A stretch of DNA of 64,000 nt from a virus (IMGVR_UViG_3300040770_000151); one strand, 5' to 3'; shown: positions 26,783 to 62,595, counted from the first letter of the stretch. Notes: a model not told the origin generated them from the letters alone. Program-made: numbers and translations.

Positions 26783-26998
26783 ATGAAAAAAGAAACACAA
26801 ATACCGCAATTGCTTGAAGATTCTGTTAGTGGAATTGCTTATTTAGCTTTTATGAGGATTGATTATGAAGGAATTTACGAATCATCTATGAATTTATTTA
26901 ATAATAAAAAAGATGCTGAAAAACATTTAGACGAATTAAAAGAGTTACACGGCACTTGGTCTAATACTTATGAGGTCGTTGAGATGCATTGCCAATAA
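26783..26998 (+). CDS. Cassette ORF A1 (starts inside a half element)
   Basis: GTT crossover at 26825 is codon 15 (Val); stop overlaps TAAC. Confidence 0.7.
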   Translation: MKKETQIPQLLEDSVSGIAYLAFMRIDYEGIYESSMNLFNNKKDAEKHLDELKELHGTWSNTYEVVEMHCQ

Positions 26999-27087
26999 CG
27001 TTTTGCAGATAGGCGATGTAAAAGCCTTGTAGGATGTTGAATATTAGTAGTAAATTTGATGGCTTTTATATTGCCTATGTGCTTTTA
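26996..27087 (+). repeat. attC-like hairpin site A1 (core G mutated to T at 27084)
   Basis: gcagataggcgatgtaaaagcc / ggcttttatattgcctatgtgc arms. Confidence 0.7.
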
Positions 27088-27102
27088 TAAGCCGTTAATT
27101 TT

Positions 27103-27175
27103 GGAAACGTAGCAAAGATGGTCTATGCGGAGGACTGAAAATCCTTAGATGTTGGTTCGATACCAACCGTTTCCA
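27103..27175 (+). tRNA. trnF: tRNA-Phe (GAA)
   Basis: Acceptor GGAAACG/CGTTTCC-A, anticodon arm GAGGA-CTGAAAA-TCCTT, T arm GTTGG-TTCGATA-CCAAC; no encoded CCA. Confidence 0.9.
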
Positions 27176-27289
27176 CGAATGCAGTTCGATTCTGCTCGTT
27201 GACCGAGATTATGGTAAAGTCCGATGCGTGGTTCAATTCCACCGTTACGAAAGTAAACTGGGTAAACGGAGGTCTTTTTTAATAGCTTA

Positions 27290-27415
27290 TAACGTCCTGC
27301 CGCTTGGCGATGTTAGCGATAAGTAAGCCAAATATTCGAGTACTCACGAATAAAAACAGGTACAAAACCATTTATTAATTGAGCCTGATGCGCTAATCTT
27401 GCCAAACGGCTGTTA
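27290..27415 (+). repeat. attC-like hairpin site A2 (126 nt)
   Basis: TAAC-gtcct-gccgcttggcgatgttagcg...cgctaatcttgccaaacggc-t-GTTA. Confidence 0.8.
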
Positions 27416-27430
27416 TAACTCGTTTTTCTT

Positions 27431-27652
27431 ATGGAAACATTTACAAGTCTTGAAAACAGATTGCAAGTATTATCTAAATCTTTAAAAAGTTTAAAAAAAA
27501 TTGAAGCAGATAATAAAAAAGCATATGATATTATTTATGAAAAATTAATAAATTCACAAACAGATGTGAGACAAAAAGAGATTGAAATAGAGCCTTTAAA
27601 AAACTCACTTAAAGACTTATATTCTAAAAAATTAGATATTTTAACTCGGTAG
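27431..27652 (+). CDS. Cassette ORF A3 (coiled coil)
   Basis: Bracketed by GTTATAACTC ... GAGTTATAAC. Confidence 0.7.
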   Translation: METFTSLENRLQVLSKSLKSLKKIEADNKKAYDIIYEKLINSQTDVRQKEIEIEPLKNSLKDLYSKKLDILTR

Positions 27653-27665
27653 CCAAAATGAGTTA

Positions 27666-27792
27666 TAACGTTTTGTAGCTTGTTTCAGTGGCGTGCAAGT
27701 AAGCGAGTATTTTCGGTTTAAAAACTATAATAACAGAGAAGCCAAATCATTAAATTAAACACGATACCAGCCATTGCTACAAACTACTGTTA
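27666..27792 (+). repeat. attC-like hairpin site A3 (127 nt)
   Basis: TAAC-gtttt-gtagcttgtttcagtggc...gccattgctacaaactac-t-GTTA. Confidence 0.8.
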
Positions 27793-27825
27793 TGTTTAGT
27801 GTCGGGTTATTAAAACTAAATTATT

Positions 27826-28017
27826 ATGTGTAGTAGATACTGCGAAGATTGTGGATGTGGCAAATCAAATGGAATTTGCACAAATTGTAACGAAGAACTT
27901 TACATTATGGATTATCAATATCCTGAAATGGACGAAGAAATTGATTTTAGCGATGAGTTTGTTGAAAAGGTAAATGAGCAAAGAGAACGTCTGCATAAAA
28001 ATAAATGTAGCCATTAA
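27826..28017 (+). CDS. Cassette ORF A4 (CxxC Zn-ribbon-like)
   Basis: CEDC..C.NC; bracketed by GTTATGTTTAGTG ... CATTAAACATAAC. Confidence 0.7.
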   Translation: MCSRYCEDCGCGKSNGICTNCNEELYIMDYQYPEMDEEIDFSDEFVEKVNEQRERLHKNKCSH

Positions 28018-28020
28018 ACA

Positions 28021-28093
28021 TAACGTTCCGCAGCTACACGATGCCAGCCTATGCGGTTGCGTTGATTCGGCTGGTATTGTGTAACTGCTGTTA
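28021..28093 (+). repeat. attC-like hairpin site A4 (73 nt)
   Basis: TAAC-gttcc-gcagctacacgatgccagcc...ggctggtattgtgtaactgc-t-GTTA. Confidence 0.8.
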
Positions 28094-28289
28094 TGGCTTC
28101 GTTCTTTTTTAAACTAACAAAAAATAACAACTTGTAAAAAAATAATTAATTGTAATACGGGTAAAATTATAAAATGCACAAAAAACGGAGGTAGTTTAGG
28201 TTACTACATTAACTCCGTTTTCTTTAAAAAATATGATATTAATAATTTCATTGAAGTGATACCGAAATCAAAATATCCTTTTTAAAACT

Positions 28290-28318
28290 AAAAACGCTCC
28301 AATTAAGAGCGTTTTTTT
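28290..28318. terminator. Bidirectional terminator between early operon A and lysis genes
   Basis: aaaaacgctc-caattaa-gagcgttttttt. Confidence 0.8.
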
Positions 28319-28464
28319 ATTTTAATACCTAATTCATTCTTTACTTTATTTAATCTCTTAATCCACCTTAAAACACGCCCTACAAGTGTAGTTGGTGGTT
28401 TATCGCTTATTAACTCTGTTGCAACATCTATTATAATGTTTGGGTCAATTTGTTCTTGTTTCAT
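28303..28464 (-). CDS. Small basic amphipathic lysis-associated protein (53 aa; paralog 63065)
   Basis: Manual ORF MKQEQIDPNIIIDVATELISDKPPTTLVGRVLRWIKRLNK...; conserved in both lysis modules. Confidence 0.6.
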   Translation of the reverse strand: MKQEQIDPNIIIDVATELISDKPPTTLVGRVLRWIKRLNKVKNELGIKIKKRS

Positions 28465-28470
28465 ATCTAT

Positions 28471-28935
28471 TTAATTTTTAATTTCAAAATGCATTGCATC
28501 GTATCCCTTTTCTTTACCTAACGAAATAAATCCGTGTTTGTAAAAAATATCTATCATAGCCTTATACTCAGGTTTTGAGAATTGAGCATTTTTCCAAGTT
28601 GTTTTTAATGCATTTTTTTCAGGCGAAAGATCAATTGCAATTCCCCAACTATGTTTACTCGGTTGCGTTCCTCCACGCATAGCACGAAAATTAAAACAAC
28701 CTCCAAATAAGTCAATTCCTAATTCAAATATTTTTTGGTAACCGTAATGTGCTAAAATATCAGTAAAAACACTTGACAATTGATTGTGTATTAATTTGTG
28801 ACATTGCATTTTATTTACTTTTACGTTTTTATCCCAAGACAAACGCATTGGATAAGGTAAGTTTAAAGTAGTCAAGTAATTTGGGTTCTTACTAGGAATG
28901 CCATATTTCGCTATTGCTTGATCGGTTGTTATCAT
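28471..28935 (-). CDS. Endolysin, peptidase M15 family
   Basis: FGGCFNFR...SKHSWGIAID...DAMHFE. Confidence 0.88.
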   Translation of the reverse strand: MITTDQAIAKYGIPSKNPNYLTTLNLPYPMRLSWDKNVKVNKMQCHKLIHNQLSSVFTDILAHYGYQKIFELGIDLFGGCFNFRAMRGGTQPSKHSWGIAIDLSPEKNALKTTWKNAQFSKPEYKAMIDIFYKHGFISLGKEKGYDAMHFEIKN

Positions 28936-28938
28936 AAT

Positions 28939-29256
28939 TTATATTTTTGTTGATTCACTTATTACCATAAACATTAAACTAATTAAAGCGGTTATTAATA
29001 AGCCTGCAATAAATTTACCTGCTCTCATATGTTCTTTTAATAAAATATTTTCATCTTCTATTATTTCAACTTTTGTGTTTAGCTTGTCAAGTAGTTGAAT
29101 AAGTCCTTTATTACCGTTTATATTACTGCCAGCTAATGCTATTTTAACCTCTTGCATAAAATCTTTAACTTCGGTCATATCTTTCTTATATATCCTAAAA
29201 TGATGCTCTAAACGCTCAACATTTAGCTTGATTTCTGTAATGTCTTTTTGTTCCAT
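28939..29256 (-). CDS. Lysis-module protein with C-terminal TM helix (paralog 63680)
   Basis: Coiled coil plus TM; near-identical duplicate. Confidence 0.7.
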   Translation of the reverse strand: MEQKDITEIKLNVERLEHHFRIYKKDMTEVKDFMQEVKIALAGSNINGNKGLIQLLDKLNTKVEIIEDENILLKEHMRAGKFIAGLLITALISLMFMVISESTKI

Positions 29257-29569
29257 CAGTTATAAAAATTTGAGCATATATTGTTAAAAGTATCAATGTT
29301 GAATAAATAAAATAATACGTATCGTTTGTTATATGTTTGTATAATAATTGCAATGACAAAACGCTAATAATACATATAACAAAAATAACTTTTTTTATTG
29401 AATACTTTTGAATATTAAAAGTAAAATGAATAATTGAAAATACAATAAAAGGAATGTCTATTAAATTTATAATTTCAAAGTTGCTTAAATAAAAATCAGT
29501 GTCAACTAAAAAAAATATAAAAACCCACCATAAAAAAATAAAATATGGTAGGTTTAAAATTAATCTCAT
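29216..29569 (-). CDS. Multi-pass membrane protein
   Basis: Several hydrophobic segments. Confidence 0.55.
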   Translation of the reverse strand: MRLILNLPYFIFLWWVFIFFLVDTDFYLSNFEIINLIDIPFIVFSIIHFTFNIQKYSIKKVIFVICIISVLSLQLLYKHITNDTYYFIYSTLILLTIYAQIFITDGTKRHYRNQAKC

Positions 29570-29829
29570 TTCTTTGGTTTTGTTGGGAATGGTTGCCCTA
29601 TTAACTCATTATCTTCTGAACTTGCAAAAGATTGCGCTTTATTTGACGTGAAAAAATTCTTTGTCAAATAAGCAATTGCAGTCACTAATAACACTTTAAT
29701 TTCTGGACTAACATTTAATGAGGGAACGAACGTTTCTTGCAACCAATTAAAAACTGTTGCTAAAATTGCTATTAACAACCCTTTACCCAAATCTAGCCAA
29801 TTAAGGCTTAAAAAACTACTCTGTTTCAT
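29566..29829 (-). CDS. Holin
   Basis: FLSLNWLDLGKGLLIAI...AYLTKNFFT; two TM segments near endolysin. Confidence 0.75.
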   Translation of the reverse strand: MKQSSFLSLNWLDLGKGLLIAILATVFNWLQETFVPSLNVSPEIKVLLVTAIAYLTKNFFTSNKAQSFASSEDNELIGQPFPTKPKK

Positions 29830-29844
29830 ATTATATTTATTTAA

Positions 29845-30381
29845 TTAATTACGTGAAATCCCTTGAATGCTTAATGATGAATATTCTATTGATGTAACCC
29901 CTACTGTTGCAGTGTTTAGTCTAACAAATATTTTAAAACCATTTACTTTTAAAGCGTCACCGATATATAGAGGTAATGTAAAAGGTTTGTTTTTAAAGTT
30001 TGTATTAAATAAAGTTACATCGTAAACATCAGTAAATCCACCTTGATTTTCAAAAGGGAAATTTAACGGTACGCCTGCGCTAATTCCGTTCGGTATTTGT
30101 ATTCTCAATTGCAAAGACGCTCTTGTACTTATAATTGTGCTTAACGTTTCAAACTCAAATAACAAATTGAAGTTATGAGGGTATACATCGTTATAAGTAA
30201 ATAAATTTGTGCCTACATTATAATCAAACATAAATTTACCGCTTATAGGGTCTTTTCCGTAAGTATTCATAGTTTTACCCGATTCCGTGCCATTGTAGAC
30301 CAATTCTTGAAAAGTAGTTGTAAGCACTAAGGGCGTTGTTCTACTTACTATTAAACGAGGGTCTGCGCTAGATTGTGCCAT
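29845..30381 (-). CDS. Putative tail-fibre-associated protein
   Basis: Beta-rich; immediately after tail spike. Confidence 0.45.
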   Translation of the reverse strand: MAQSSADPRLIVSRTTPLVLTTTFQELVYNGTESGKTMNTYGKDPISGKFMFDYNVGTNLFTYNDVYPHNFNLLFEFETLSTIISTRASLQLRIQIPNGISAGVPLNFPFENQGGFTDVYDVTLFNTNFKNKPFTLPLYIGDALKVNGFKIFVRLNTATVGVTSIEYSSLSIQGISRN

Positions 30382-30384
30382 ATT

Positions 30385-32871
30385 TTATAAAATTATATAT
30401 TGTGATAAATTTGCCCCTATTGTTGTTTTTGAGTATTGACCGCTAACAACTAGTGTACTTGCTCCGTCAATATTAACCCCTCCTACGCTTTGAATTAATA
30501 CGCTATTTGCTGAGCTATCCATTTTTTTAACGGTTAATTTATAGCCTTGTAAAGCCGTAAAAGTAGGTAGAGTAACAGTAATATTCCCACTTGTTGTGTT
30601 TACACTTAAAATTAACTCGTTATTGTTTACAAAGTCACCTATTACAACTGTTTTGTTAGCTGTGATTGTTTGATTTGCGTATAAAGTTTGACCTTTAGTA
30701 ACGAAGTGGTTAAAAGCGGTAGCATTTGCCCCTTGCATTGTACCATCAAGATTAACTCTCGCTTTTTCATTGTTATTTACGTCTCTAAATGTAGCGATTA
30801 TACTTCCTGTTCCGTTATTTCTTATGTTTGCTCCAACAACCCCTACAGTAACTATACCGTAATCATTATTTGACTCAAAACTAGCACCAGCCGCAGCACC
30901 TGTCCCAGTGTTAATAGCAGTAAAAGCAGGATTTCCATTATTGGCTAAATTTATTGTTTTTACACCTGTTATAGTTTGAACTCCTGTCAACTTAACATTC
31001 CCACTATCAGCATTTGTTACAAAAGAAGTAGTAGCAATTGTACTACTTAAAACTTTCTCAAAAATTCCTGTACTTGAGTTCCGTGTTAAAAAGTCATAAG
31101 ACCCTGCACTTGTGGTTGGCGTATCTGATAAGGTGATCCCCGCAATTTGCATTTTCTCCCCTCCTAAGAAATCTCCGTACATATTAGATAGATTAGCAAG
31201 CTGAACGGTATACTCACTTATATCCGATCCCTCAACTCTGTTCCCTAATATAGTAGAATAACCTGCCCCGTTACCTCCAACTCCAAAAAATGCAATACCA
31301 TAGTCTCCGCAATTTATAATGATGTTGTTTGAAATCACGTTATACTTACCGTTAGTCGATCTAATTCCAGATCTATTCAATGCCGTATCTCTTACGCTAT
31401 TCCCTATTACATAAACATTGCTGGCGTTTTCTAAATTAATCGCTTCTAAACCACTATTTGACACGGTATTTCCTGATACTAAGCAGGGAGAAGATATAGG
31501 AGTGAATGGTATGCCGTCAACCGTAGGATCTACAGTTATACCTATTAATGTAGAATTATGCACCGTATTGCCTAACACTTTAGTGTTTTGATTTTGAGTT
31601 TTAGAAGGGTCTCCACCGCCTATCTGTATACCGTTAGTTCCGTTGTTTTTAAAAGTACTGTTTTCAATAGAGCAATTCAAGGAATATGTTACGCTGTAAC
31701 CACTGCTTAACGTGTTATTAGCTTGGCTGTTTATAACTGATATTTCGCCCGCATCGGTAAAATAGAAGCCCAAATCTGAACCCTCAGAAACACAACCGTC
31801 TAAAGTAATGTTTCTAACGTGTTTAATGTGAAAATTGTTTACGTCGCAATTATAGACTTTACAATTAGTAAGCTTACTATTGACATCTGGCGCATTATTG
31901 TTAAAAGGACTCCCCCCTTGACCACTTAGAAAAAATCCAAACTGCCACCCGTTAATAATAGTAACGTCCTCAGCAATAAAATTAGTCCAAGAAGGAGGAT
32001 TCATATATATACCATTGCCTAATATCTGACTTGCTGGATTAGTGGTATTGGCTTTATTCAAATCAATTGTAACCCCTTTAATAACACACCCATTTGTAGC
32101 TACTAATACACCGTTGAAATTTACGGTAGCGGAATTTTTTATTTTAATTGTAGCACCATAGCCTAACAGTGTTAAACCTGTTGTATTAATAGCCCCAGAA
32201 ACAAGATATATTTTTTTAGGCGTTAATTGAACTATTTCCCCAATAGAGGCGCTCATTGTTAATATCAATGCAGCCGTATCATCTGTTGCGTTATCCCCTT
32301 TAGCACCGAACCATTCTGGGCGTATGTGTAAGAAGTCTCTCTTAAAAAACTCACCGCCTAATTGAAAAAAAATAATTCCGTCAACCGTTGGTGTTCCCGT
32401 TACTTTTGATAAAGTAATTTCTTCACCCGTGTATTGGTCTAAGATGCCGTACAAAACATCCCCTTTTCTTTGAGCTAAAGAAAGGGATTCGTTTGATTTA
32501 ATCCATGCAAAATTTATTGTAGTCCACGTACCAGCACTACGACCAAACACCCCCGCTGTAGTTACATCTTCAACAAAATCTAAATTGTTATCAAATTGAG
32601 ATAATAAAGTAGGTTTGTTTTTTATAAAAGCAGGGTTTAAAGGATCGTTTATTGCGAAATCACTTTGACTTGACACGCTAGGGTCGATACTGTCTAACTT
32701 AGCTTTGTCTACAGCTGAAAAATTAACGTCCGTTAAACTTTTACCTGTTACTTTATCAACCTTATTTGCGTATAATTCGTCAAAATTATCGTCTGATTTA
32801 ACAAAAGCTTGTCTTAATGGGTCTCCCAATCCATCATTTGCAAAGCTATAATTTATTTTCTTTTGTGCCAT
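30385..32871 (-). CDS. Tail spike/fibre with parallel beta-helix (pectate-lyase-like depolymerase)
   Basis: DGLGDPLRQAF anchor, PEWFGAKGD..TDDTAA, Asn/Gly-rich PbH1-type repeats. Confidence 0.8.
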   Translation of the reverse strand: MAQKKINYSFANDGLGDPLRQAFVKSDDNFDELYANKVDKVTGKSLTDVNFSAVDKAKLDSIDPSVSSQSDFAINDPLNPAFIKNKPTLLSQFDNNLDFVEDVTTAGVFGRSAGTWTTINFAWIKSNESLSLAQRKGDVLYGILDQYTGEEITLSKVTGTPTVDGIIFFQLGGEFFKRDFLHIRPEWFGAKGDNATDDTAALILTMSASIGEIVQLTPKKIYLVSGAINTTGLTLLGYGATIKIKNSATVNFNGVLVATNGCVIKGVTIDLNKANTTNPASQILGNGIYMNPPSWTNFIAEDVTIINGWQFGFFLSGQGGSPFNNNAPDVNSKLTNCKVYNCDVNNFHIKHVRNITLDGCVSEGSDLGFYFTDAGEISVINSQANNTLSSGYSVTYSLNCSIENSTFKNNGTNGIQIGGGDPSKTQNQNTKVLGNTVHNSTLIGITVDPTVDGIPFTPISSPCLVSGNTVSNSGLEAINLENASNVYVIGNSVRDTALNRSGIRSTNGKYNVISNNIIINCGDYGIAFFGVGGNGAGYSTILGNRVEGSDISEYTVQLANLSNMYGDFLGGEKMQIAGITLSDTPTTSAGSYDFLTRNSSTGIFEKVLSSTIATTSFVTNADSGNVKLTGVQTITGVKTINLANNGNPAFTAINTGTGAAAGASFESNNDYGIVTVGVVGANIRNNGTGSIIATFRDVNNNEKARVNLDGTMQGANATAFNHFVTKGQTLYANQTITANKTVVIGDFVNNNELILSVNTTSGNITVTLPTFTALQGYKLTVKKMDSSANSVLIQSVGGVNIDGASTLVVSGQYSKTTIGANLSQYIIL

Positions 32872-33336
32872 CTAGTAGAAATCATTAAAATTAGTGGTTT
32901 CTTCGTCTTTCTTTTCGTAATCCCATTCTGGAATGGTTGTATTTCCCATAAATTTACGAAAATTATCTTCAATAGTTACGGCTAAATTCTTGTATTGATC
33001 TGCTAATTGATAAGTTTTTTGAGTAGGCTGACCGTTTGCCACTGATAAAATAGTATTCCCAATGTTAGACTGCTTTACCTCATTGAATAAAGTAAAATAA
33101 TAAGCAGTATAAAATACGTGCATATCAATAATGTACTTATCATAAATTGTCTTGTAAATACCTTGTAAATTAGCAAAATCATTAGTTATTTTATCAACTA
33201 AAGACTGACCTAAAACCCTAGTAACATCTGAAATTTGAGCGTAGTATATTTTCTGTAAAATAAGTTCGTTATCCGTTGCGCTACTTATTGAAGTTGTTGC
33301 TTTAAATTGTTCCGCTGTTATAAATAATTTTGTCAT
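32872..33336 (-). CDS. Head-tail adaptor-like protein
   Basis: Follows portal; AQISDV..VLG..L pattern. Confidence 0.55.
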   Translation of the reverse strand: MTKLFITAEQFKATTSISSATDNELILQKIYYAQISDVTRVLGQSLVDKITNDFANLQGIYKTIYDKYIIDMHVFYTAYYFTLFNEVKQSNIGNTILSVANGQPTQKTYQLADQYKNLAVTIEDNFRKFMGNTTIPEWDYEKKDEETTNFNDFY

Positions 33337-54650: not shown

Positions 54651-54668
54651 AATTATTTTTTTTATGAA

Positions 54669-55085: not shown

Positions 55086-55434
55086 ATTCTTTTTTATAAA
55101 GTTCTAATAAGTAAATTGTTTTGTCAATATCTTCAATAAAATTAGCTTTTTTTCTGCAACGCATAACACGTTTAATAATATCAAATTCGTACGTATTAAG
55201 CTGTTTATCTTCGCAAAACTGGTAAAGCGATCCTTTGCTATTGTCGTAGTTTTTTTGAGTCGTTAAATCGGGTTCTTTATCATTCCATTCTGCCCAAAAA
55301 TCAATACCTTCTTTTGTGTCTCCCCAAACAAAAGCCTTTTCTAAAGAATTTGTATCTTTGTCGCTTGTAACTGATTTTCTCTGATACTCTAACGCCTTTT
55401 CTTTTATTTCCTGTGGTAATTCGCTTATTTTCAT
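55069..55434 (-). CDS. MKISELP module fused to DUF3310-like domain
   Basis: IIKR..R.RKK....EDIDK..Y C-terminal pattern. Confidence 0.5.
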   Translation of the reverse strand: MKISELPQEIKEKALEYQRKSVTSDKDTNSLEKAFVWGDTKEGIDFWAEWNDKEPDLTTQKNYDNSKGSLYQFCEDKQLNTYEFDIIKRVMRCRKKANFIEDIDKTIYLLELYKKEYENKN

Positions 55435-55649
55435 AAATAATTCATTTTAGATTGTAAAGTTATTTCTTGAATTTTTCCAATAAAGTATAAATGTTGGTGT
55501 AATAAATCTTCCTGGTACTTGTCTAAATATAAAGCGTAATTGTTAATTCGCTTTACTTTTGTAGGTATGATTTTAATGCTTTTTATACATCTAGAAATTT
55601 CGTTATACATCATATCGCATTCTATAGCAATTTGCATTAAAGACTTCAT
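55431..55649 (-). CDS. Hypothetical protein
   Basis: ORF track. Confidence 0.55.
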   Translation of the reverse strand: MKSLMQIAIECDMMYNEISRCIKSIKIIPTKVKRINNYALYLDKYQEDLLHQHLYFIGKIQEITLQSKMNYL

Positions 55650-55752
55650 AACGCTAACATTTTAGCTATTTTAATAATAAATTGTTCTATTTTGTTTCTC
55701 ATAATTTTTTATTTAAACCGTCCTAAATTTTAGGACGGTTGGTTTTTTGTTT

Positions 55753-56085
55753 TTAAAAAGGAATATCAGATTCTTCTTCTTCTGAAACAGGTGTGGCATT
55801 AAATACCGTTTCTTTTTGATCCCATATAGTAGTAACTCCTTCGCCTATAAAAATAGTCTCTGCTTTCGCTTCTCTTTCTTCTTTAGTTTGTATTACGCTT
55901 GCAAAATGTGATTTCTGTAATTTATAACCGCTACCCTCGTGTATTATTTTAGGCTCTTTTACTTCTACAAGTTCAAATCTGACTTCTTGGACTTTCATTT
56001 TAATCCCTTCTTTTGAATCGAACTCTCTTTTTGTTACTAGATTACGTAATTTAGTAGCGTCTAATGTGATTGTTATTTTTGACAT
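55753..56085 (-). CDS. Probable SSB
   Basis: Acidic EESDIPF tail. Confidence 0.6.
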   Translation of the reverse strand: MSKITITLDATKLRNLVTKREFDSKEGIKMKVQEVRFELVEVKEPKIIHEGSGYKLQKSHFASVIQTKEEREAKAETIFIGEGVTTIWDQKETVFNATPVSEEEESDIPF

Positions 56086-56087
56086 AT

Positions 56088-56738
56088 TTAAAATTTTAAT
56101 TTGTTTAATTCAATTGTTATTTGTTCTTTTAATAATTCCCCTTCTTTTTTAGCTATTTCAACCCACTCATTGACAGTTTTTATAATTGGTTTGGCTTTTG
56201 TTCCTAAATTAATTAAGCTTTCTCTAGTAAGCTCTTTTACAAAAATAGGTTTATAAATGTTTTCGGGTCTGTAGCTACAAAAATAATGTTTTTGTAATTT
56301 AGGGTTTATCGTAAAATAGTGTAAACATTGGTGTATATTGTCGTTTGGAATATCATTTGCTCGAATAGTAGATAAATGTTTTTTTTTTGCAAAACATTTT
56401 ATTTCTGCTGATATTGTTTCATCTTCACTTATTCCATCTGGAGAAATGCCTAAGTATTCGTTTTCTTCGCATTGCAACCAACCAACCTCTAAAAGTTCAA
56501 TGCCTAAATATGCGCTTAATGCTTTTCTTGCTTCTGGCTCTAATTCTGAACCTCTTACCATATCATAAGATTGATAATTTTCTTGTAAGTCAAATTCTTC
56601 GCATAGTTCGCTTAAAACATCTTCTAATAAAGTATCTGATTTTACAAATAAACCTTTTGATAAAGTACCACCTATTTTCCCATATCTTACTTCGTGCCAT
56701 TCCTCAGAATGTTGTTCAATATCATTTCTAATTATCAT
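56088..56738 (-). CDS. YqaJ/lambda-exonuclease family nuclease
   Basis: QHSEEW..VR.GKIG, RG.ELEP.AR, GISPDG, EIKC. Confidence 0.88.
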   Translation of the reverse strand: MIIRNDIEQHSEEWHEVRYGKIGGTLSKGLFVKSDTLLEDVLSELCEEFDLQENYQSYDMVRGSELEPEARKALSAYLGIELLEVGWLQCEENEYLGISPDGISEDETISAEIKCFAKKKHLSTIRANDIPNDNIHQCLHYFTINPKLQKHYFCSYRPENIYKPIFVKELTRESLINLGTKAKPIIKTVNEWVEIAKKEGELLKEQITIELNKLKF

Positions 56739-57268
56739 TTTAAAGTAGTTTTAAGTTTTTCTTTTAAAGCAATTACAGTTGGTAAATGCTGTTCGGAAGG
56801 AGTTAATATTTTCCAAGCTATTTGTAAAGCTTCTAAAGAAGTACACATGTTTAAAGCAGAAATTGCAGTAACATCTGAAATAACTTTTTTAACAACAGGC
56901 TTAACTTTTATACCTCCTGTTACTTTACCCATCATTTTAACGCTAGGATCAAAAAACAAATCTATTTTAATACCTTTCCATTTAGGTAATTTTCTACTTT
57001 CTGCTGAACTGCAATTTAATTCTTGCTTTACAATTTCATTTATTATTTTTCTATTTCCACTATTAGCAACCATATCTTTAACAGGCTCTATAAATGAAAT
57101 AAAATAACCATCTGTTTTATTTCCAGAAACATCTACGCCTCTATCATAATAGGCTTCCTTAATTGTTAAAATACAATTTCCTTTTTCCTCCACAATTGCA
57201 TCTACATCAATCCCCGCTAAATGCGTTGACTTTCTGTATTTCATACTATCAATATCTAACTCTCTCAT
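56735..57268 (-). CDS. Hypothetical protein, possible ssDNA-annealing partner
   Basis: Adjacent to exonuclease; same slot as the RecT-like gene in unit A. Confidence 0.4.
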   Translation of the reverse strand: MRELDIDSMKYRKSTHLAGIDVDAIVEEKGNCILTIKEAYYDRGVDVSGNKTDGYFISFIEPVKDMVANSGNRKIINEIVKQELNCSSAESRKLPKWKGIKIDLFFDPSVKMMGKVTGGIKVKPVVKKVISDVTAISALNMCTSLEALQIAWKILTPSEQHLPTVIALKEKLKTTLK

Positions 57269-57274
57269 AATTTT

Positions 57275-57523
57275 CTATTTTAATTTTTCTATTAATCTTC
57301 TAACTTTTCCAGCTAAACCACTATCAACTGATTCTAAACAATAAAGTATATGGTTTGCTTCTTCTATAATATTTCTTTGCATTTCGTTAAATACTTCAAC
57401 ATAACCGTTGTCGTATGCTTCTGTTAAATTTATAATAGTTTCTACTATTTCAGCATCTACTTCAATCTCGTTTGCAGGATGCATACTGTTGTTCGTTCCT
57501 AAATAATTGTCGTCGTAATTCAT
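57275..57523 (-). CDS. First leftward early gene (paralog 25107)
   Basis: N-terminal similarity. Confidence 0.7.
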   Translation of the reverse strand: MNYDDNYLGTNNSMHPANEIEVDAEIVETIINLTEAYDNGYVEVFNEMQRNIIEEANHILYCLESVDSGLAGKVRRLIEKLK

Positions 57524-57549
57524 AATAATTTTTATTTAAATGATTAATA

Positions 57550-57645
57550 TTTTTTACAAAGATACATTTGTTTTTGACAAATCAATGTTAAAATTATGTT
57601 AAAAAGGAAAAGTAATGTATAAAAGCGCTATCTTTGACAAAAAAT
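57550..57645. promoter_or_regulatory. Divergent promoter pair, unit B
   Basis: TATCTTTG at 57557-57564 (minus) and 57629-57636 (plus). Confidence 0.75.
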
Positions 57646-57658
57646 AAATCACAACAAT

Positions 57659-57952
57659 ATGAACAAAGCATTTACAAAATCAAAAGAAATAGTATTAGAT
57701 GAAAATTACAAAATTATTCCTGATACTGACAATGGTGTTGTTTTAGTTTTTAAAACAAGTAGAGTTAATAAAAAAGATGAAACAGTACCGCACGAGGAAT
57801 TGTTTTATTACCCTAGAATTTCACAAGCACTAAAGCATTATGCAGATAAAACAATTAATAATTCTGAGAGTTTAGATGATTGTATTTATAAATCAGAATC
57901 AGTTTATAATTTGATAAAAAGATTAGACCAACAATTTAAACAATTTAATTAG
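57659..57952 (+). CDS. First rightward early gene (paralog 25496)
   Basis: Similarity. Confidence 0.75.
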   Translation: MNKAFTKSKEIVLDENYKIIPDTDNGVVLVFKTSRVNKKDETVPHEELFYYPRISQALKHYADKTINNSESLDDCIYKSESVYNLIKRLDQQFKQFN

Positions 57953-57957
57953 TAAAT

Positions 57958-58137
57958 ATGAAAACCAAGAAACACAAAATAGTAAATGGTAAATGGCAAA
58001 TTAAAAACATTTACGACGCTTTACAAGCTAGTTTATTTGATATTTATATAAATACCCATCGTGAATTAGAAACGCCTGCATTAAGGTCTAAAATAACGAA
58101 AGAATACAACTATAAATTTAATTTTACAAACAGATGA
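57958..58137 (+). CDS. Hypothetical protein (59 aa; paralog 25898)
   Basis: Manual ORF MKTKKHKIVNGKWQIKNIYDALQAS. Confidence 0.65.
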   Translation: MKTKKHKIVNGKWQIKNIYDALQASLFDIYINTHRELETPALRSKITKEYNYKFNFTNR

Positions 58138-58421
58138 AAAATTTAAAAATAAAAGAAATTAATTTTTTAAAAGGAGAAGAAAGAGGTTTGACAAAAAATT
58201 ACCCTTCAAACGGTTTTTTTATTTCAAGGTTCGAAAACGGAACTAGCGACTTTATTCTTGTTGACAAGAATGCTGAGCGTGTTATTTTTCTTTGTCCAGA
58301 AGAAATATTTAATTCAATTTCTGAATACGAAGAAGAAACAATAATTTCAGAACCTAATACCGATACCTATAAAGGTGATTTTATTCTTGAATTTGCTAGA
58401 ATTTTATTAAACAGAAAATAA
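58134..58421 (+). CDS. Hypothetical protein
   Basis: Occupies the slot of 26095 in unit A but is unrelated. Confidence 0.6.
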   Translation: MKNLKIKEINFLKGEERGLTKNYPSNGFFISRFENGTSDFILVDKNAERVIFLCPEEIFNSISEYEEETIISEPNTDTYKGDFILEFARILLNRK

Positions 58422-58435
58422 CTAAAAATAAAACA

Positions 58436-58684
58436 ATGATAACAGAACAACTAATACCACTTTTGAAGAATAAAAGAGAAAATTTAAAAGGAACAACACT
58501 ACCAACGGTTAAACTTTGGGAATCTGGTACACGTTCGCCATTATTAAAAAACGTTGACCAAATATGTAAAGCAAACGATTTAAAAGTTTTGGTTTATGAT
58601 GGTAACTTAGATACTTTGATAAATTTTGCGCATAAAGTCGCTAAAGAACAAGGTATGAAAATGATTCTTAATTTTGAGGCTTAA
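58436..58684 (+). CDS. XRE-like HTH regulator (paralog 26481)
   Basis: Near-identical; stop codon lies in TAAC of site B1. Confidence 0.7.
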   Translation: MITEQLIPLLKNKRENLKGTTLPTVKLWESGTRSPLLKNVDQICKANDLKVLVYDGNLDTLINFAHKVAKEQGMKMILNFEA

Positions 58685-58786
58685 CGTCCTGCAGCTACAC
58701 GATGCTAGTCTAAGTGCTTAGTAGATTCGGCTGCTGAATTATGTTATGTGTTATAAGTAGTACGGGTAATTAAAAAAAATGTAATT

Positions 58787-58963
58787 ATGAAAGAAAAATT
58801 TAAAAGTTATTTAGAAAGATTAAAGTCTTTTAATAAAGCGGAAAATTATAATTATACAGATGACGATTTTGATAAGTATAAAGATTATATTAGAGATTGT
58901 TGGCTAAGTAATTTAAGCGTACATAAATGCCTTGAATTTATGTATTTTGAAACGGAATCGTAG
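58787..58963 (+). CDS. Cassette ORF B1 (58 aa)
   Basis: Manual ORF MKEKFKSYLERLK...FMYFETES. Confidence 0.65.
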   Translation: MKEKFKSYLERLKSFNKAENYNYTDDDFDKYKDYIRDCWLSNLSVHKCLEFMYFETES

Positions 58964-59137
58964 TATTACTTATAATGGATCAGTGATATGAGAGGATTTT
59001 CGGAACGGAAATCACGAATATTTACTGCCAAAACTAATATTACCCAGTACAAAACAATAAATCAATAATCACAAATGCCGAAAATCGCTCATATCACTTG
59101 TTACTGGCTGTGCTTTTTCGGCTCAAAAAATTAAAAA

Positions 59138-59560
59138 ATGGATATTAAAACTATCAAAATTAAAAAAGTGGATACTGAAAAATTAATTGAATTTTTAGCA
59201 ATCCCATTGAATGAGAATGAAAAATTATCAATAGATGTTTTTGGAGTTTTTGAAAACAAATTCGGAATCGATACTGATTGTTGTTTCTGGGAAATAAATC
59301 AAGCGTTCTTTAATGAAAAAATACAAGATGTAATTGATATTGAATGTAGAATTAAGAAGTATAACGATAAAGGAGGTTATTCAATTAGAATGGATAAAGC
59401 TGATTTTGTAAAAACAATTTCTTTAGAAGATTATTTGAAATTATCTGAAGAAGTTATGCTTGTAGATTTTATAAGATTGGATTATAATCCGAGAATTACA
59501 GGCAATCAAAAATTATTGATGAAACATATTAGACAAAGTTATGCCGTTCCAACCGCATAG
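59138..59560 (+). CDS. Cassette ORF B2
   Basis: ORF track; between sites B2 and B3. Confidence 0.7.
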   Translation: MDIKTIKIKKVDTEKLIEFLAIPLNENEKLSIDVFGVFENKFGIDTDCCFWEINQAFFNEKIQDVIDIECRIKKYNDKGGYSIRMDKADFVKTISLEDYLKLSEEVMLVDFIRLDYNPRITGNQKLLMKHIRQSYAVPTA

Positions 59561-59686
59561 CCAGTAACGCCTACCGCTACAGCACGCCGCCTAAGTGGTT
59601 GCGTAGGTTCGGCGGTGGTTTGTAACGGTTGTTATGCCTTCGCCTTTTTATTTACAACATATTATTAACTAATAAATTATAAAAAA

Positions 59687-60163
59687 ATGAACAATTATTT
59701 ATTTAAAAAAATAGAACAAGCTCACGGAGCTTATTTTGAAAACTTAACTTTTATTGCAAATGAAGTTTGTCGTGAAAGACAATCAGAATCGTTTGAAGAA
59801 TTTACTGAATTAGAACCTGCTGAAATAGCAAAAGTTTTAGGATGGAATGACAAAAAAGAAACCCTATCTCTAATTGAAAGCGAAATAAAAGACAAAAGTT
59901 TATCTGGATTATTATTGAGATACGATATGACTGGATTTTTAGCACAATGTATGATGCCTGAATGTTCAAATTTTAGATTTGAAGAAGGAAAAGAAAGACC
60001 TTGCTCGTGGAGTGTTCACGGTGGAATTTGCAGAATATTTTGGATTTATGCTGAATCAATAGGCGAGCTAGTTGAAAAGTTAGAGCAAAAAGCAGAGAAT
60101 TTATTTTTAGAAGCCGTAAATAAATCAAGGTCAGTTGTAGATTCCAACCAAGCTGACGCATAA
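59687..60163 (+). CDS. Cassette ORF B3
   Basis: Stop overlaps TAAC of B4. Confidence 0.7.
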   Translation: MNNYLFKKIEQAHGAYFENLTFIANEVCRERQSESFEEFTELEPAEIAKVLGWNDKKETLSLIESEIKDKSLSGLLLRYDMTGFLAQCMMPECSNFRFEEGKERPCSWSVHGGICRIFWIYAESIGELVEKLEQKAENLFLEAVNKSRSVVDSNQADA

Positions 60164-60315
60164 CGGTCGAGTGCTTGGCGAAGAAGCGGAAAAGTACATG
60201 CTATTTTTCGATTAAGCCTAAATTTTAAAGACACAAAATATATTATAAATTAATAACCGAACCCGCTTTTTTGCCAAACACTTGTTATGGTTAGTGCGGT
60301 TCATAAAAACAAAAA

Positions 60316-60795
60316 GTGATGAAACAATTAAATCAAATTATCAAAACATTAAGAGAAGAAACGGCTTTTTCATTTACCGAAAAGAAATTAGAAATACTTA
60401 GAAGTCAAAAAGATTATTCAGAAATGATGAAACAATGTTATAGCGGGAAAGATAATACTACTATTGAAGAATGTGAAGAAAACGCTATTAGAACGTTTGT
60501 TTCTGAATATCAAAAAATGTGTGAGATTTATTCAGGATGGTTGAAAAATGGAAAGGTTTTTATTTTAGATAAAAGAGACCATTTTATTCTTGCACTATAC
60601 AAAGTTGATGATATTGCACATAAGGCAATTGCACAATACAATCCATTGAATGTAGATTGCATTGAGCAATCAATTTCAAATAAACATTTTTTCGAGCAAT
60701 TAAATATCCGTTTTGATATTTCTACAAATGAAGAATTATTAATTAAAGAATGTGATTTGTTAATCAAAAATTCAATTGTTTACCCAGCACCGTAG
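60316..60795 (+). CDS. Cassette ORF B4
   Basis: Between sites B4 and B5. Confidence 0.7.
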   Translation: MMKQLNQIIKTLREETAFSFTEKKLEILRSQKDYSEMMKQCYSGKDNTTIEECEENAIRTFVSEYQKMCEIYSGWLKNGKVFILDKRDHFILALYKVDDIAHKAIAQYNPLNVDCIEQSISNKHFFEQLNIRFDISTNEELLIKECDLLIKNSIVYPAP

Positions 60796-61066
60796 CATTA
60801 ACCATAACGGAATGTGGCTTTATTTCAGTTGCAAAATTCGTAACCGATAATTTTCGGCTAATAAAAAACGACTTTCGAAAGATAATTTTGATTTTATCAG
60901 ATATTTTGCAATTGAATAAAACCACTGTTATCGCTAGTTGCAAGTAGTTCAGAAAAATACTTTAGAAAATAATTTAAATATTTTATAAAAACACTTGTTT
61001 ATTATAAAATAAGTTATATATTTGCTAAAGAAATAACAACGAAGTTATTTTGTAATTTTTATTATT

Positions 61067-61312
61067 ATGAATAATGTTTATACAAATAGTCGTCCAACTG
61101 AAAGTTTTTGCAAACTAAAAGCTACTTGTGGATTACACGGTAATTTAGACATTCACGGAATGGAATGGAGCGAAAGAGTTATTTTAAAAGTAGTTGCTTT
61201 TGATAGAACTAACGGAGTTTTAATCGTTGAAAATGATAACGGATTAAAATGGAATACAGATTTGAAGAAAATGCAATTCTGTTTAGAGAATGGCAATTCA
61301 GTTCCAAACTAA
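61067..61312 (+). CDS. Cassette B5 ORF 1
   Basis: Behind internal TATATTTG promoter 61017-61024. Confidence 0.65.
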   Translation: MNNVYTNSRPTESFCKLKATCGLHGNLDIHGMEWSERVILKVVAFDRTNGVLIVENDNGLKWNTDLKKMQFCLENGNSVPN

Positions 61313-61514
61313 AATGCCATTCATCCTAAAAAATAAAGAAACCGAGCAATATAGATTGTTCGGTTCTTTACCTATCCTTTGCCGAAGCATTGGATTTGAC
61401 GAAAAAAAAGAGAAAAATTTGCTTTACACTTTCTCTCAAAAAAAAGAAATAAAGTTTGAAAATAACGAGTTTCTAATTGTAAAAGTCTTTTTAGAACGTG
61501 GTGGCAGCAATTAG
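61290..61514 (+). CDS. Cassette B5 ORF 2, possible small DNA-binding protein
   Basis: Overlaps ORF 1; FGSLPILC motif resembles the C-terminus of 4570-4836. Confidence 0.55.
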   Translation: MAIQFQTKMPFILKNKETEQYRLFGSLPILCRSIGFDEKKEKNLLYTFSQKKEIKFENNEFLIVKVFLERGGSN

Positions 61515-61590
61515 CGATAACGTTTTGCGGCTTTGTCGTCGTTGTGGCGTTTGAACACAAATATTAACAAAGAAAACAAATCATTAAATT

Positions 61591-61788
61591 ATGCCAAATA
61601 CTTCCAAAAATGCCCAAGTGCCACAATGCGACAAAACCGCTGTTAGCAGTAGTTATTCGTTAGATGAAGTTAGAAATATTGTTCTTGAAATGCGTAATGA
61701 AGCGATATCTGGTTTAAGAGGTGAGAGGCGTTGGGACATGCAAAAACGACTTGGTAAAATAAGAGATAAATGGAAGTTGGGGTATTAA
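61591..61788 (+). CDS. Cassette ORF B6 (starts inside site B6)
   Basis: GTT crossover at 61642 is codon 18 (Val). Confidence 0.6.
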   Translation: MPNTSKNAQVPQCDKTAVSSSYSLDEVRNIVLEMRNEAISGLRGERRWDMQKRLGKIRDKWKLGY

Positions 61789-61902
61789 TTACTGCTAACG
61801 TTCCCGCGATAGGGGCTGTTTGCCTATGCGGAAACCTACTTTCGGCAAATAGACCTTATCGTGTGTTATCAATATTATGAATTATTAAAACAAAAATAAA
61901 TT

Positions 61903-62163
61903 ATGGAAACTAAAAAACCAAACAATCCAAGTGCATTTCCTGTAATAGCTACAGAACAATCGTTTTTTAATCAAAGCCCATTAATGCCTGAATCAGGAAT
62001 GACTTTAAGAGACCATTTTGCTGGATTAGCAATGCAGGGATTAATGTCAATGGAAGAAAAAGGAGAGTATCAAACAATTGATGATGCTTGGAGGAAAATA
62101 GCTGAATACTCGTATCAAATGGCTAACGCTATGCTAAAAGTTCGTGAAGAAACGGAATCGTAA
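61903..62163 (+). CDS. Cassette ORF B7, widespread phage AFP...GMTLRD family
   Basis: SAFP...GMTLRDHFAGLAMQG...YQMANAMLK.RE. Confidence 0.75.
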   Translation: METKKPNNPSAFPVIATEQSFFNQSPLMPESGMTLRDHFAGLAMQGLMSMEEKGEYQTIDDAWRKIAEYSYQMANAMLKVREETES

Positions 62164-62333
62164 TATTATTGATAACGGTTCGCTAGTAGGCGATGGTTAG
62201 GGTCAGGATTCTAATTGTGGCGAATTCTCCTTAATTAAACCAAGTACAAAAAACTAATTAAATTAATCACGATGCCCAACTATTGCTTACTAGCTGTTAG
62301 CATTTGTGCGGGTAACTAAAACTAAATATTATT

Positions 62334-62546
62334 ATGAAAGCAATAGGAAATTATTTGCCGTGGGAATCTGGATATTATGAAAGTTCAGGTTCATATAAAA
62401 AAAGCAATGGAGAATTAATATTTTGTTATACTTATTATTTCTCTGGAAAAGCGGAACAAATTGAAACAAGACACCCTATAGATTGTGGTAAATTAAATAA
62501 AGAGATTGAAGAAAAATGTAATTCAAAAACGAAAATACAGCATTGA
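62334..62546 (+). CDS. Cassette ORF B8
   Basis: Between B8 and truncated B9. Confidence 0.65.
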   Translation: MKAIGNYLPWESGYYESSGSYKKSNGELIFCYTYYFSGKAEQIETRHPIDCGKLNKEIEEKCNSKTKIQH

Positions 62547-62595
62547 TGCTAACTCATCCATACAACTAACTAACCTATTCAATACCCTGTAAACA

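Follow-up and report, generated by a model that had tools for sequence, protein, structure and literature searches.

Integrons are defined by an integrase that carries a special (IntI) domain. The CTX phage integrates by XerCD via a folded single-stranded hairpin, pdif modules on Acinetobacter plasmids also depend on Xer, and in T4-type phages promoter-stem-loop (PeSL) cassettes allow gene shuffling by homologous recombination between near-identical sequences. Series of attC sites without an integrase (CALINs) have been reported in virulent phages, with 2–4 sites per phage example (Qi et al, 2023; PMC9892861), and phage attC clusters lacking an integrase are already known. In a Polaribacter phage, one site of the build described below was called by HattCI and listed as an attC within a phage cluster of such sites; IntI1 recombined a further site of this phage (PMC9892861). 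‘Inverted integrase’ sedentary chromosomal integrons are recognized in the Spirochaetota/Chlorobi group (PMC9024848), and standard surveys have found almost no integrons in Bacteroidetes.

The window analysed here, the 64,000 nt of IMGVR_UViG_3300040770_000151, contains two Flavobacterium-type phage genomes (units A and B), each with a rightward cassette operon. As in integrons and CALINs, small genes stand in tandem, split by imperfect hairpins of 73–135 nt with AAC/GTT cores; the crossover appears to lie in the AAC of one strand, and a hairpin-less, putatively attI-like insertion point stands at one end of the array, on the side that holds the recombinase gene in complete versions. As in phage CALINs, the cargo in phages includes methyltransferases and the window holds no integrase. 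Unlike integrons and CALINs, however, the recombinase associated with these sites is Xer/XerA-like (267 aa in phages, ~400 aa on chromosomes) and has no IntI-specific domain; the phage cassette genes lie on the presumed recombined strand and are transcribed toward the attI-like end, the promoter standing at the opposite end of the array; the hairpin has a one-sided 4-nt bulge; and arrays reach 16 sites, against the 2–4 of published phage examples. The pairing of a simple Xer-type recombinase with a mobile module is shared with CTX phage and pdif, but those use host dimer-resolution enzymes and dif-like 28-bp sites, and are without long arrays of covarying hairpins, a dedicated recombinase or an attI-like end. 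Likewise, PeSL cassettes also place short conserved intergenic stem-loops around small accessory genes, in a phage region that is hyperplastic, whereas here the arms differ, the junctions fall in a 5–7-nt core and a recombinase is linked. A literature search found no paper on this Xer-like recombinase, the inverted orientation or the array scale.

The 12 TAAC…GTTA hairpins of the original prediction are all present, on one strand and confined to the two rightward operons. Unit A comprises five cassette units with four sites and unit B eight with eight. As had been noticed, ORF stops lie inside TAAC or 0–14 nt 5′ of it, and the two units carry different cassette sets, similarity within the arrays being site-to-site only; the leader genes before the array are conserved between the units. 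Cargo consists of ORFs and, in one cassette of the window, a tRNA. Sites were scored with two covariance models, R1 and R2, the latter built from the four short sites; z compares the fold with shuffled sequences. The parts of unit A are as follows.

25496–26729, + strand: leader genes of 97, 66 and 129 aa, then the 82-aa ‘HTH’ gene (26481–26729); not cassettes.
26730–26999, + strand: first unit, with TAAC (26730–26733) directly 3′ of the HTH stop and an ORF at 26783–26998 (71 aa).
26995–27098, + strand: site A1, ~100 nt, right core GTTAA (DNA fold z = −5.5; R1 29 bits, R2 24 bits).
27103–27176, + strand: tRNA-Phe(GAA), the cargo of cassette A1, then tRNA-like debris to ~27260.
27289–27416, + strand: site A2, long class (R1 110 bits; z = −3.5); cargo ORF 27431–27652 (73 aa).
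27665–27793, + strand: site A3, long class (R1 120 bits); cargo ORF 27826–28017 (63 aa).
28020–28094, + strand: site A4, short class (R1 50 bits, R2 94 bits; z = −4.8); no ORF behind.
28114–28118, + strand: CTAAC, probable terminal hairpin-less half-site, then an A-rich stretch with two TTGTAA motifs.

None of the leader proteins of unit A matched a Pfam family. The first unit has a TAAC without a hairpin and the TAA stop of its ORF sits within the following TAAC; it is a decayed site, and 26745–26802 is similar to the right-hand portion of a hairpin cassette from relative L166. Site A3 shares 83% identity with one in Flavobacterium phage snusmum9-1. The CTAAC at 28114–28118 is tentatively assigned as the probable terminal half-site by analogy with the conserved spacer of relatives. 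Unit B is organized in the same direction.

57659–58684, + strand: leader genes of 97, 59 and 95 aa, then the 82-aa ‘HTH’ gene (58436–58684).
58681–58754, + strand: site B1, short class, right arm degenerate (z = −0.2); cargo ORF 58787–58963 (58 aa).
58972–59104, + strand: site B2, long class, variant cores ATAAT/GTTAC (R1 48 bits; z = −3.4); cargo ORF 59138–59560 (140 aa).
59564–59635, + strand: site B3, short class; cargo ORF 59687–60163 (158 aa).
60160–60288, + strand: site B4, long class (R1 122 bits); cargo ORF 60316–60795 (159 aa).
60804–60931, + strand: site B5, long class (R1 105 bits); cargo ORFs 61067–61312 and 61290–61514.
61517–61646, + strand: site B6, long class (R1 107 bits); cargo ORF 61591–61788.
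61795–61869, + strand: site B7, short class (R1 29 bits, R2 91 bits; z = −3.9); cargo ORF 61903–62163 (86 aa).
62172–62300, + strand: site B8, long class (R1 101 bits); cargo ORF 62334–62546 (70 aa).
62549–62595, + strand: terminal hairpin-less half-site CTAAC (62549–62553) and apparent spacer remnant, …CCCTGTAAACA before the ATG at 62596.
62596–63048, + strand: post-array genes (94 aa and 43 aa), in the position taken by the recombinase gene in related phages.

Here the HTH stop TAA sits within the first TAAC. The left arm of B1 is 81% identical to A4, and B3 matches a site of relative L165 at 86% identity, its 158-aa cargo having 50 homologues. The cargo of B5 appears to have its own promoter, read from the sequence as TTG-N19-TATATTTG (60995–61024), which we take to be of Bacteroidota type from the general consensus. 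The B6 cargo ORF starts within the hairpin loop, so that the right arm is translated; the site is 81% identical to one that, in 23 Flavobacterium phage records, stands before a methyltransferase gene, with similarity stopping at CTGTT. Compared with the conserved spacer of relatives, the stretch ending in CCCTGTAAACA looks like a diverged remnant of an attI-like spacer, and the two post-array genes show no similarity to recombinases by tblastn or HMM. Four features of the window suggest decay: the degenerate B1, the missing hairpin in the first unit of A, the lack of an ORF behind A4 and this attI-like remnant.

The sites share one build: a closing stem ATAAC-G/T-GTTAT, a bulge of 4 nt confined to the 5′ arm, four base pairs, a 1×1 mismatch and a long imperfect stem. 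They measure 73–135 nt and fall into two classes, of ~127 nt and ~73 nt. Compared with shuffles, eight of the 12 fold with z ≤ −2.9, the signal being weaker in A3, B1, B3 and B8. RNAalifold on six long window sites gave 23 pairs with compensatory changes in 15. R1 recovered 10 of 12 sites in the window, all on the + strand (E ≤ 7e-4), its sole match outside the arrays having E = 4; B1 and B3 were recovered by R2 only, the model made from them, and R2 run on the whole window found no further site. The same pattern extends beyond the window: 65 phage sites are 92.7% paired against 64.9% in shuffles, with compensatory changes at all 16 stem pairs and AAC/GTT invariant in 64–65 of them, and 40 chromosomal sites are 92.2% paired against 67.4%. 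Two conserved G·T positions, the side of the bulge and the 1×1 mismatch make the site asymmetric and strand-specific in phages and chromosomes alike. All 12 window sites correspond to the general description of attC (imperfect hairpins of ~57–141 nt closed by AAC…GTT, conserved in structure and not in sequence), and the reading of the operons as attC-like cassette arrays is borne out by their size, cores and covarying stems. In fine structure they have a one-sided 4-nt bulge beside the cleaved core, where classical attC has a two-sided unpaired spacer and extrahelical bases. These results support the view that the window hairpins are attC-like, structure-specific sites bounding cassettes; taken as such, at least two stand in series without an integrase in both A and B, as in a CALIN.

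The proposal that the arrays form a shufflable platform was confirmed directly in cultured relatives, where hairpin-plus-gene units are gained, lost, swapped and relocated. Cultured Lillamyvirus phages that are ~99% identical differ by an indel, a replacement and a relocated unit (455 nt, hairpin plus ORF, 99% identical at both places), with all junctions inside TTATAAC, and one insertion lies at the terminal half-site. Junctions in cultured phages share 5–25 nt. Cassette gain and loss thus occurs within the AAC/GTT core, but not at the right G/TT as originally supposed: the core in use is the left one (TTATAA|C), which on the coding strand lies at the 5′ end, so each hairpin belongs with the gene downstream. 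Neither content nor order is fixed among relatives. The borders of the array also coincide with cores: similarity between unit B and L165 ends at 58684, in the HTH stop/TAAC, and is found again from 62547, at the terminal TAAC, with 90% identity, and in unit B relatives the whole array differs between flanks that are 77–90% identical. Left-core crossover alone does not explain B6 and A3, which are conserved as isolated modules with both flanks differing and similarity ending at the right GTT. One cultured-phage junction is inside the stem (position 7097 of L007).

Insertion 3′ of TAAC recalls IS200/IS605-type (HUH) elements. Assignment to these elements was rejected, given one hairpin per unit and a tyrosine recombinase as the linked enzyme; Pfam scans covering about 37 proteins from the window and from relatives gave no HUH match.

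Covariance searches, as suggested with the original prediction, detected the same sites in cultured phages, uncultured phages, a prophage and Flavobacteriaceae chromosomes. Cultured Flavobacterium phages have arrays of 13–16 sites, and 49 of the 151 Flavobacteriaceae genomes contain hairpin sites, in chromosomal arrays of up to 13 or more. The linked tyrosine recombinase that was sought is present in related phages and in host chromosomes, and is short and Xer-like. In many uncultured phages the arrays end at a 267-aa Xer/XerA-like tyrosine recombinase, with a conserved ~57-nt spacer separating the terminal TAAC from the ATG of the recombinase gene; in relatives this spacer and the terminal half-site, where one insertion was seen, may represent an attI-type insertion site, of which the window apparently has a diverged remnant without the gene. 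In the 80 best IMG/VR loci for relatives of recombinase P0051, 141 of 143 model matches are on the recombinase strand, nearly all upstream of the gene; of the 56 loci whose upstream sequence spans 1 kb or more, 40 have sites (up to 10 per locus). The L011 prophage carries at its end a distinct integrase of 403 aa, indicating that P0051 is not the lysogeny enzyme. Chromosomal arrays adjoin a recombinase of ~400 aa that is 35% identical to P0051, and in named genomes 20 of 23 model matches lie downstream of it on the opposite strand. As in ‘inverted integrase’ integrons, the Flavobacteriaceae chromosomal recombinase is co-directional with the cassettes and followed by ORF-site-ORF-site; unlike them, it scores 205 bits against the integron-integrase cut-off of 265, with model positions 181–237 missing. 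The linked recombinases as a group score 137–205 bits on TIGR02249, leaving positions ~181–237 unmatched, and P0051 can be aligned with XerA over its full length, whereas with IntI4 it matches in two blocks and is ~48 residues short. Identification as classical integron integrases was consequently rejected: the enzymes are Xer/XerA-like and the IntI-specific domain, by which classical integron integrases read folded attC sites, is missing, so that hairpin recombination by them is putative.

The window itself encodes no tyrosine recombinase detectable by HMM or tblastn, as first reported; an HMM of 29 related recombinases run against every frame reached at most 4.8 bits, versus 46.9 bits for a distant control integrase. 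The suggestion of a host-encoded integrase-like enzyme holds in that a related enzyme is present in host chromosomes, but the nearest one is phage-borne and Xer-like without the IntI domain. It could be argued that the arrays were made in a recombinase-bearing ancestor and are now immobile relics, kept as harmless or for expression. The missing recombinase, the diverged attI-like spacer, the degenerate arm of B1, the first unit of A without a hairpin and A4 without cargo would all fit such fossils. However, 10 of the 12 window hairpins keep full pairing despite differing arms, which implies continuing selection on structure; the very recent relocation occurred in ~99%-identical cultured phages that also lack the recombinase; and in unit B relatives the whole array differs between similar flanks. 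We therefore regard fossil arrays as unlikely.

The orientation of the sites differs between phages and chromosomes. The folding (model) strand is sense to the genes in 8/8 phage arrays and antisense in 10/11 chromosomal arrays. In all eight phage arrays the hairpin precedes its gene and transcription runs toward the attI-like end; the classical integron order (gene then its own attC, read away from the attI/intI end) is found in 10/11 chromosomal arrays and 0/8 phage arrays. A simple draw on a host cassette pool, as had been envisaged, is opposed by this inversion, because borrowed host cassettes would sit antisense. The orientation also bears on whether the hairpins act in RNA, by mRNA processing, stabilization, attenuation or translation control, with gene shuffling a by-product. 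In all phages they lie on the sense strand, stop codons abut the 5′ foot, several genes begin within the loop (the B6 ORF and methyltransferase genes in L001) and T-runs follow A2, A4 and B3. Yet the chromosomal arrays, whose genes lie on the other strand, keep the same G·T positions and bulge side, indicating selection at the DNA and not the RNA level; moreover, junctions fall within a 5–7-nt core, a recombinase gene abuts the arrays in 40/56 phage loci, and no Rfam family matches the hairpins. A primarily RNA-level function is thus improbable, with room left for a secondary RNA role beside the DNA-level one. Finally, it is very improbable that the turnover reflects copy-choice, in which replication would stall at the hairpin foot and the nascent …TTATAAC re-anneal elsewhere via a phage exonuclease/annealing pair with no site-specific enzyme: hairpins are known replication stall sites, unit B encodes a YqaJ-type exonuclease adjoining a 177-aa protein and the shared junction sequences are short, but the conserved bulge, mismatches and invariant AAC/GTT across at least 100 sites, the dedicated recombinase and conserved spacer at the array end, and the chromosomal arrays beside a related recombinase would be left unexplained.

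We consider it likely, then, that the hairpins are structure-specific recombination sites, equivalent to attC, of a cassette system that is native to the Bacteroidota, chiefly Flavobacteriaceae, and to phages infecting them; the window sites are homologous to those linked to recombinases. According to the model, a phage cassette would begin after …TAA|C with the hairpin, continue through a short leader and the cargo, and end with the next …TAAC, while a hairpin-less TAAC half-site at the array end would play the role of attI, followed in complete versions by the ~57-nt spacer and the gene for the 267-aa recombinase. The coding strand would fold as the counterpart of the attC ‘bottom’ strand, since it has 5′-AAC at its 5′ end and the conserved G·T pairs would be A·C mismatches on the other strand. 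The recombinase would then cut within the AAC of the closing stem; exchange of that single strand with a second hairpin would give excision or shuffling, and exchange with the terminal half-site would give insertion. As the window lacks a recombinase, present-day shuffling in its phages would need an enzyme in trans, which might be supplied by the host chromosome, by a prophage resident in the same cell or by a co-infecting phage.

A broader reading is plausible, and we put it forward tentatively: Flavobacteriaceae phages may run their own inverted integron, with cassettes on the recombined strand and a minimal Xer-like recombinase reading folded DNA without an IntI domain. Recombinase-less, probably virulent phages, the two of the window among them, would borrow the enzyme in trans from prophages or from the related system on the host chromosome, and phage and host would share one site grammar but keep separate cassette pools. 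The cargo would often be DNA methyltransferases and other probable counter-defence genes, and could also be non-coding (tRNA-Phe).

Surveys built on the IntI-domain definition would miss this Flavobacteriaceae and phage system. If a plain Xer-like enzyme does recombine folded hairpins, the IntI domain would not be essential and a Xer origin of integrons would become testable; cultured Flavobacterium phages and their hosts make the system directly amenable to experiment. It would also explain the swapping of methyltransferases and other small early genes among close phages, whose methyltransferase content has been tied to host range by the authors describing the cultured phages (PMC7077304). 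The arrays also hint at a platform for recombination that may be open to virulent phages with no recombinase gene of their own.

At least two phage genomes are represented, in part and placed end to end, in the window (G+C ~30%), which divides as follows:

to ~28.3 kb: unit A
28.3-63.06 kb: unit B
from 63.06 kb: a third unit

Units A and B have only a few early-region segments in common (72-88% identity). The window is a head-to-tail string of at least 2.5 distinct phage genomes; it may represent prophages in tandem, an assembly chimera or a bin whose members were concatenated. On the minus strand of unit B (56088-57268), a YqaJ-type exonuclease gene (56088-56738) directly follows the gene of a 177-aa protein (56735-57268), and the two products may form a Red-like recombination pair; the corresponding part of the unit A early operon carries different genes. 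Unit A encodes a 727-aa fusion protein (17549-19732, minus strand) in which an SNF2/ResIII-type helicase is joined to an N6/N4 DNA methylase domain.

Units A and B each have one short rightward operon that diverges from a long leftward early operon. Here, 3' of an 82-aa gene conserved between A and B (the 'HTH' gene), small ORFs are parted by imperfect inverted repeats that start with (A)TAAC-G and end with T-GTTA(T), four in unit A (A1-A4) and eight in unit B (B1-B8), and the ORF stop codons fall within TAAC or 0-14 nt 5' of it. In unit A, the gene immediately 3' of the HTH gene is preceded by a TAAC that has lost its hairpin. The original prediction had placed TAAC...GTTA repeats in both rightward operons, and all 12 sites were found at the expected positions; its claim that the two units carry different cassette sets also held, the arrays being alike only from site to site. 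Likewise, no tyrosine recombinase was detected in any frame of the window, as had been stated (top score 4.8 bits, compared with 46.9 bits for a distant control). An Rfam search of the window matched only the tRNA (below), and Pfam assigned no family to the 10 cassette ORFs scanned or to the leader genes. Exact-sequence look-up of both HTH proteins gave no record, and an IMG/VR search with the HTH protein yielded four distant loci, all lacking arrays. Two features were located within cassettes:

27103-27260: tRNA-Phe(GAA) plus tRNA-like fragments, the cargo of cassette A1 in place of an ORF
60995-61024: predicted Bacteroidota-type promoter, exact match (TTG, 19 nt, TATATTTG), in the cassette behind B5, before ORF 61067

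At least one cassette therefore carries a promoter of its own, and so does the HTH-regulator cassette of phage hemulen6-1 (L001, ~5017-5046). The notion that tRNAs are common cassette cargo was rejected, because none was present in any other array among the 56 phage and chromosomal loci scanned.

As single-stranded DNA the sites adopt a common predicted fold, in which a closing stem of 6-7 pairs is followed by a bulge of 4 nt confined to the 5' arm, then by four pairs, a 1x1 mismatch and a long stem with imperfect pairing. Two length classes are represented (~127 nt and ~73 nt). Eight of the 12 fold far better than shuffled sequences, A3, B1, B3 and B8 doing so less clearly, and compensatory changes were observed in 15 of the 23 pairs predicted for six long sites. 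R1, a covariance model derived from these six, recovered 10 of the 12 window sites, all on the plus strand, with nothing better than E = 4 elsewhere in the 64 kb; a second model, from the four short sites (R2), added no further site in the window. The right arm of B1 is degenerate and the cores of B2 are variant. Scans of phages and Flavobacteriaceae genomes with R1, a check of the kind the original prediction had proposed, revealed arrays, some of them beside a tyrosine recombinase gene. The bulge side and two conserved G.T positions are the same in phage and chromosomal sites, and on the opposite strand these positions would become A.C mismatches. The G.T 'pairs' are near-invariant at model positions 9 and ~27 (phage, 64/65 and 55/65; chromosomal, 38/40 and 35/40) and may be strand-selection marks of the site family; the shared strand-specific features point to function at the DNA level.

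Cultured Flavobacterium siphoviruses (genera Lillamyvirus and Muminvirus) contain sequences that match sites B6 and A3 at 81-83%. R1 located 13-16 sites in these genomes, all on the coding strand of the rightward operon and between small genes, with several DNA methyltransferase genes flanked by sites; the phages were described as variable in methyltransferase content, hairpins being unmentioned (PMC7077304). Because cultured genomes that are ~99% identical were compared, the differences between them must be recent. Pairwise these comprised a 470-nt indel, one replacement and one relocated unit of 455 nt (hairpin plus 288-nt ORF; 99% identical), which occupies a mid-array position in lillamy9-1 and closes the array in lillamy9-7. 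The junctions of all three changes fall inside a shared TTATAAC at the left foot of the hairpin, and the insertion point of the relocated unit was a terminal TTATAAC with no hairpin behind it. Thus, the mobile unit is a hairpin with its downstream gene and the next TAAC, and every array ends in a hairpin-less half-site. Comparison of cassette content and order among relatives therefore revealed gain, swap and relocation at the core TTATAAC; the crossover had been expected at the right-hand G/TT, and this was not borne out, the cultured-phage junctions lying at the left core.

Three metagenomic relatives of the window phages (L165-L167) carry site arrays 3' of the same HTH gene, and at least those of L165 and L166 have only site-level similarity in common with the window arrays. 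Homology to unit B ends at the HTH stop/TAAC (58684) and restarts at the terminal CTAAC (62547-62553) with 90% identity; the borders of the window arrays coincide with cores. Within the L165 array, a 91-aa ORF (6264-6539) lies on the opposite strand to all other ORFs and may be a cassette of chromosomal orientation captured by the phage array. A fixed pairing of gene and hairpin was rejected, since homologues of ORF 59687-60163 have a long hairpin upstream in one case (L170), none upstream in another (L173) and none on either side in a third (L011).

The last of these homologues lies in a prophage of a Flavobacterium genome. The L011 prophage contains four sites with small sense ORFs, then a hairpin-less TAAC and, 55 nt after it, the gene for P0051, a 267-aa Xer/XerA-like tyrosine recombinase with intact catalytic residues. 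P0051 does not serve as the lysogeny integrase, because a separate 403-aa integrase is encoded at the far end of the prophage. An HUH/IS200-like mechanism of insertion 3' of TAAC was dropped on the linkage to a tyrosine recombinase. Relatives of P0051 numbered 247 in IMG/VR; at the 80 best of the loci encoding them R1 gave 143 matches, 141 of them on the recombinase strand and nearly all directly 5' of the recombinase gene, and 40 of the 56 loci that extend 1 kb or more upstream of the gene contained sites, up to ten each. Cassettes common to phage contigs with ~90%-identical recombinase proteins were sought and the idea rejected, as the arrays share almost nothing. Between the terminal TAAC and the recombinase start codon lies a conserved ~57-nt spacer that begins TAAC/TACTATATGTA and contains a second TGTAAAC. 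Cultured phages and unit B retain recognisable remnants of the spacer start or of the TGTAAAC motif, and other small genes occupy the recombinase position. P0051 aligned with archaeal XerA from end to end, and with the integron integrase IntI4 in two blocks only, being ~48 residues short across the IntI-specific region. A ~600-nt non-coding stretch 3' of the small recombinase gene in L011 (15000-15600) holds repeats of GTGGAAC(T)GTGGAAC together with a ~30-nt motif in three copies (..CCATCGG.CAGTAATTAAAT..). Two phage contigs carry tRNA genes (Trp, Leu) ~1 kb 3' of the small recombinase gene (L087, 9903-10163; L119, 4812-4883).

On the host side, R1 detected sites in 49 of 151 sampled Flavobacteriaceae genomes, some chromosomal arrays filling entire short contigs (at least 13 sites in 11.8 kb). 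The top integron-integrase-like gene of five array-rich genomes was a 353-405-aa frame near a contig end, and one such locus (L080) shows the recombinase frame followed by ORF-site-ORF-site on the same strand. Of 23 site matches in named genomes (Flavobacterium, Maribacter, Seonamhaeicola, Xanthomarina, Pseudotamlana and others), 20 lay 3' of such a gene and on the strand opposite to it. The chromosomal recombinase is 35% identical to P0051 and, like it, lacks the IntI-specific segment; it scored above the cut-off of the 'XerA / integron integrase' model (226 against 220 bits) but below that of the integron-integrase model (205 against 265 bits). The same sites are thus tightly linked to two related recombinase types. 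As to the predicted host-encoded integrase-like recombinase, a recombinase related to P0051 does accompany the chromosomal sites, but the linked enzymes are Xer-like and without the IntI-specific segment.

In chromosomes, genes run antisense to the model strand (10/11 arrays), which gives the classical integron order of a gene followed by its own attC, the model strand being the attC bottom strand with 5'-AA/C at its 5' end. In phages, genes are sense to the model strand (8/8 arrays). As the bulge side and G.T positions are the same in both orientations, the site, not transcription, sets the folding strand, and phage breakpoints fall at the left core because this is the AA/C of the recombined strand. 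Given the opposite orientation, transfer of a host cassette to a phage array by this chemistry would leave the cassette antisense; the proposed draw on a host cassette pool therefore found no support, and the two pools are probably largely separate.

According to the model, recombination would be integron-like, single-stranded and structure-specific, would occur at the AAC of the closing stem and would be performed by an Xer-like recombinase, with the hairpin-less half-site beside the recombinase gene as preferred insertion point. The P0051-type and chromosomal enzymes would then act on hairpin sites without an IntI domain. The window arrays are best read as a recombinase-less form resembling CALINs (attC clusters lacking an integrase), their phages presumably being serviced by a recombinase in trans. 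Some observations fit poorly. The B6 and A3 hairpins are conserved as stand-alone modules whose homology stops at the right GTT, and one cultured-phage junction lies inside a stem. Exchange that occasionally involves the other strand could explain these cases, as could ordinary recombination between arms that are similar. ORF 61591-61788 starts in the B6 hairpin loop, so its first ~18 residues are hairpin-encoded (61591-61648), and this peptide forms the N-terminus of a 65-aa protein in the window and of a 325-aa DNA methyltransferase in cultured phages (L001, 6085-6150). The integron-like shufflable platform that had been proposed is therefore right in kind, but not in its core, enzyme family or host-pool source.

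Phage attC arrays without an integrase were already known, since such clusters have been published for 17 phage genomes, including a virulent Polaribacter phage with two methyltransferase genes (PMC9892861). One site of this phage has the same build as the window sites, and another of its sites was recombined by IntI1 in E. coli (PMC9892861). Almost no complete integrons are reported in Bacteroidetes by IntegronFinder 2.0. Our search of accessible papers returned no report of an Xer-like recombinase without an IntI domain partnering such arrays, of the conserved attI-like spacer, of inverted gene orientation in phages, of arrays of up to 16 sites in cultured Flavobacterium phages, or of direct evidence for cassette relocation between near-identical phages. 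Integron and phage biologists should find the system of high interest, since there are cultured phage-host pairs in which it can be tested.
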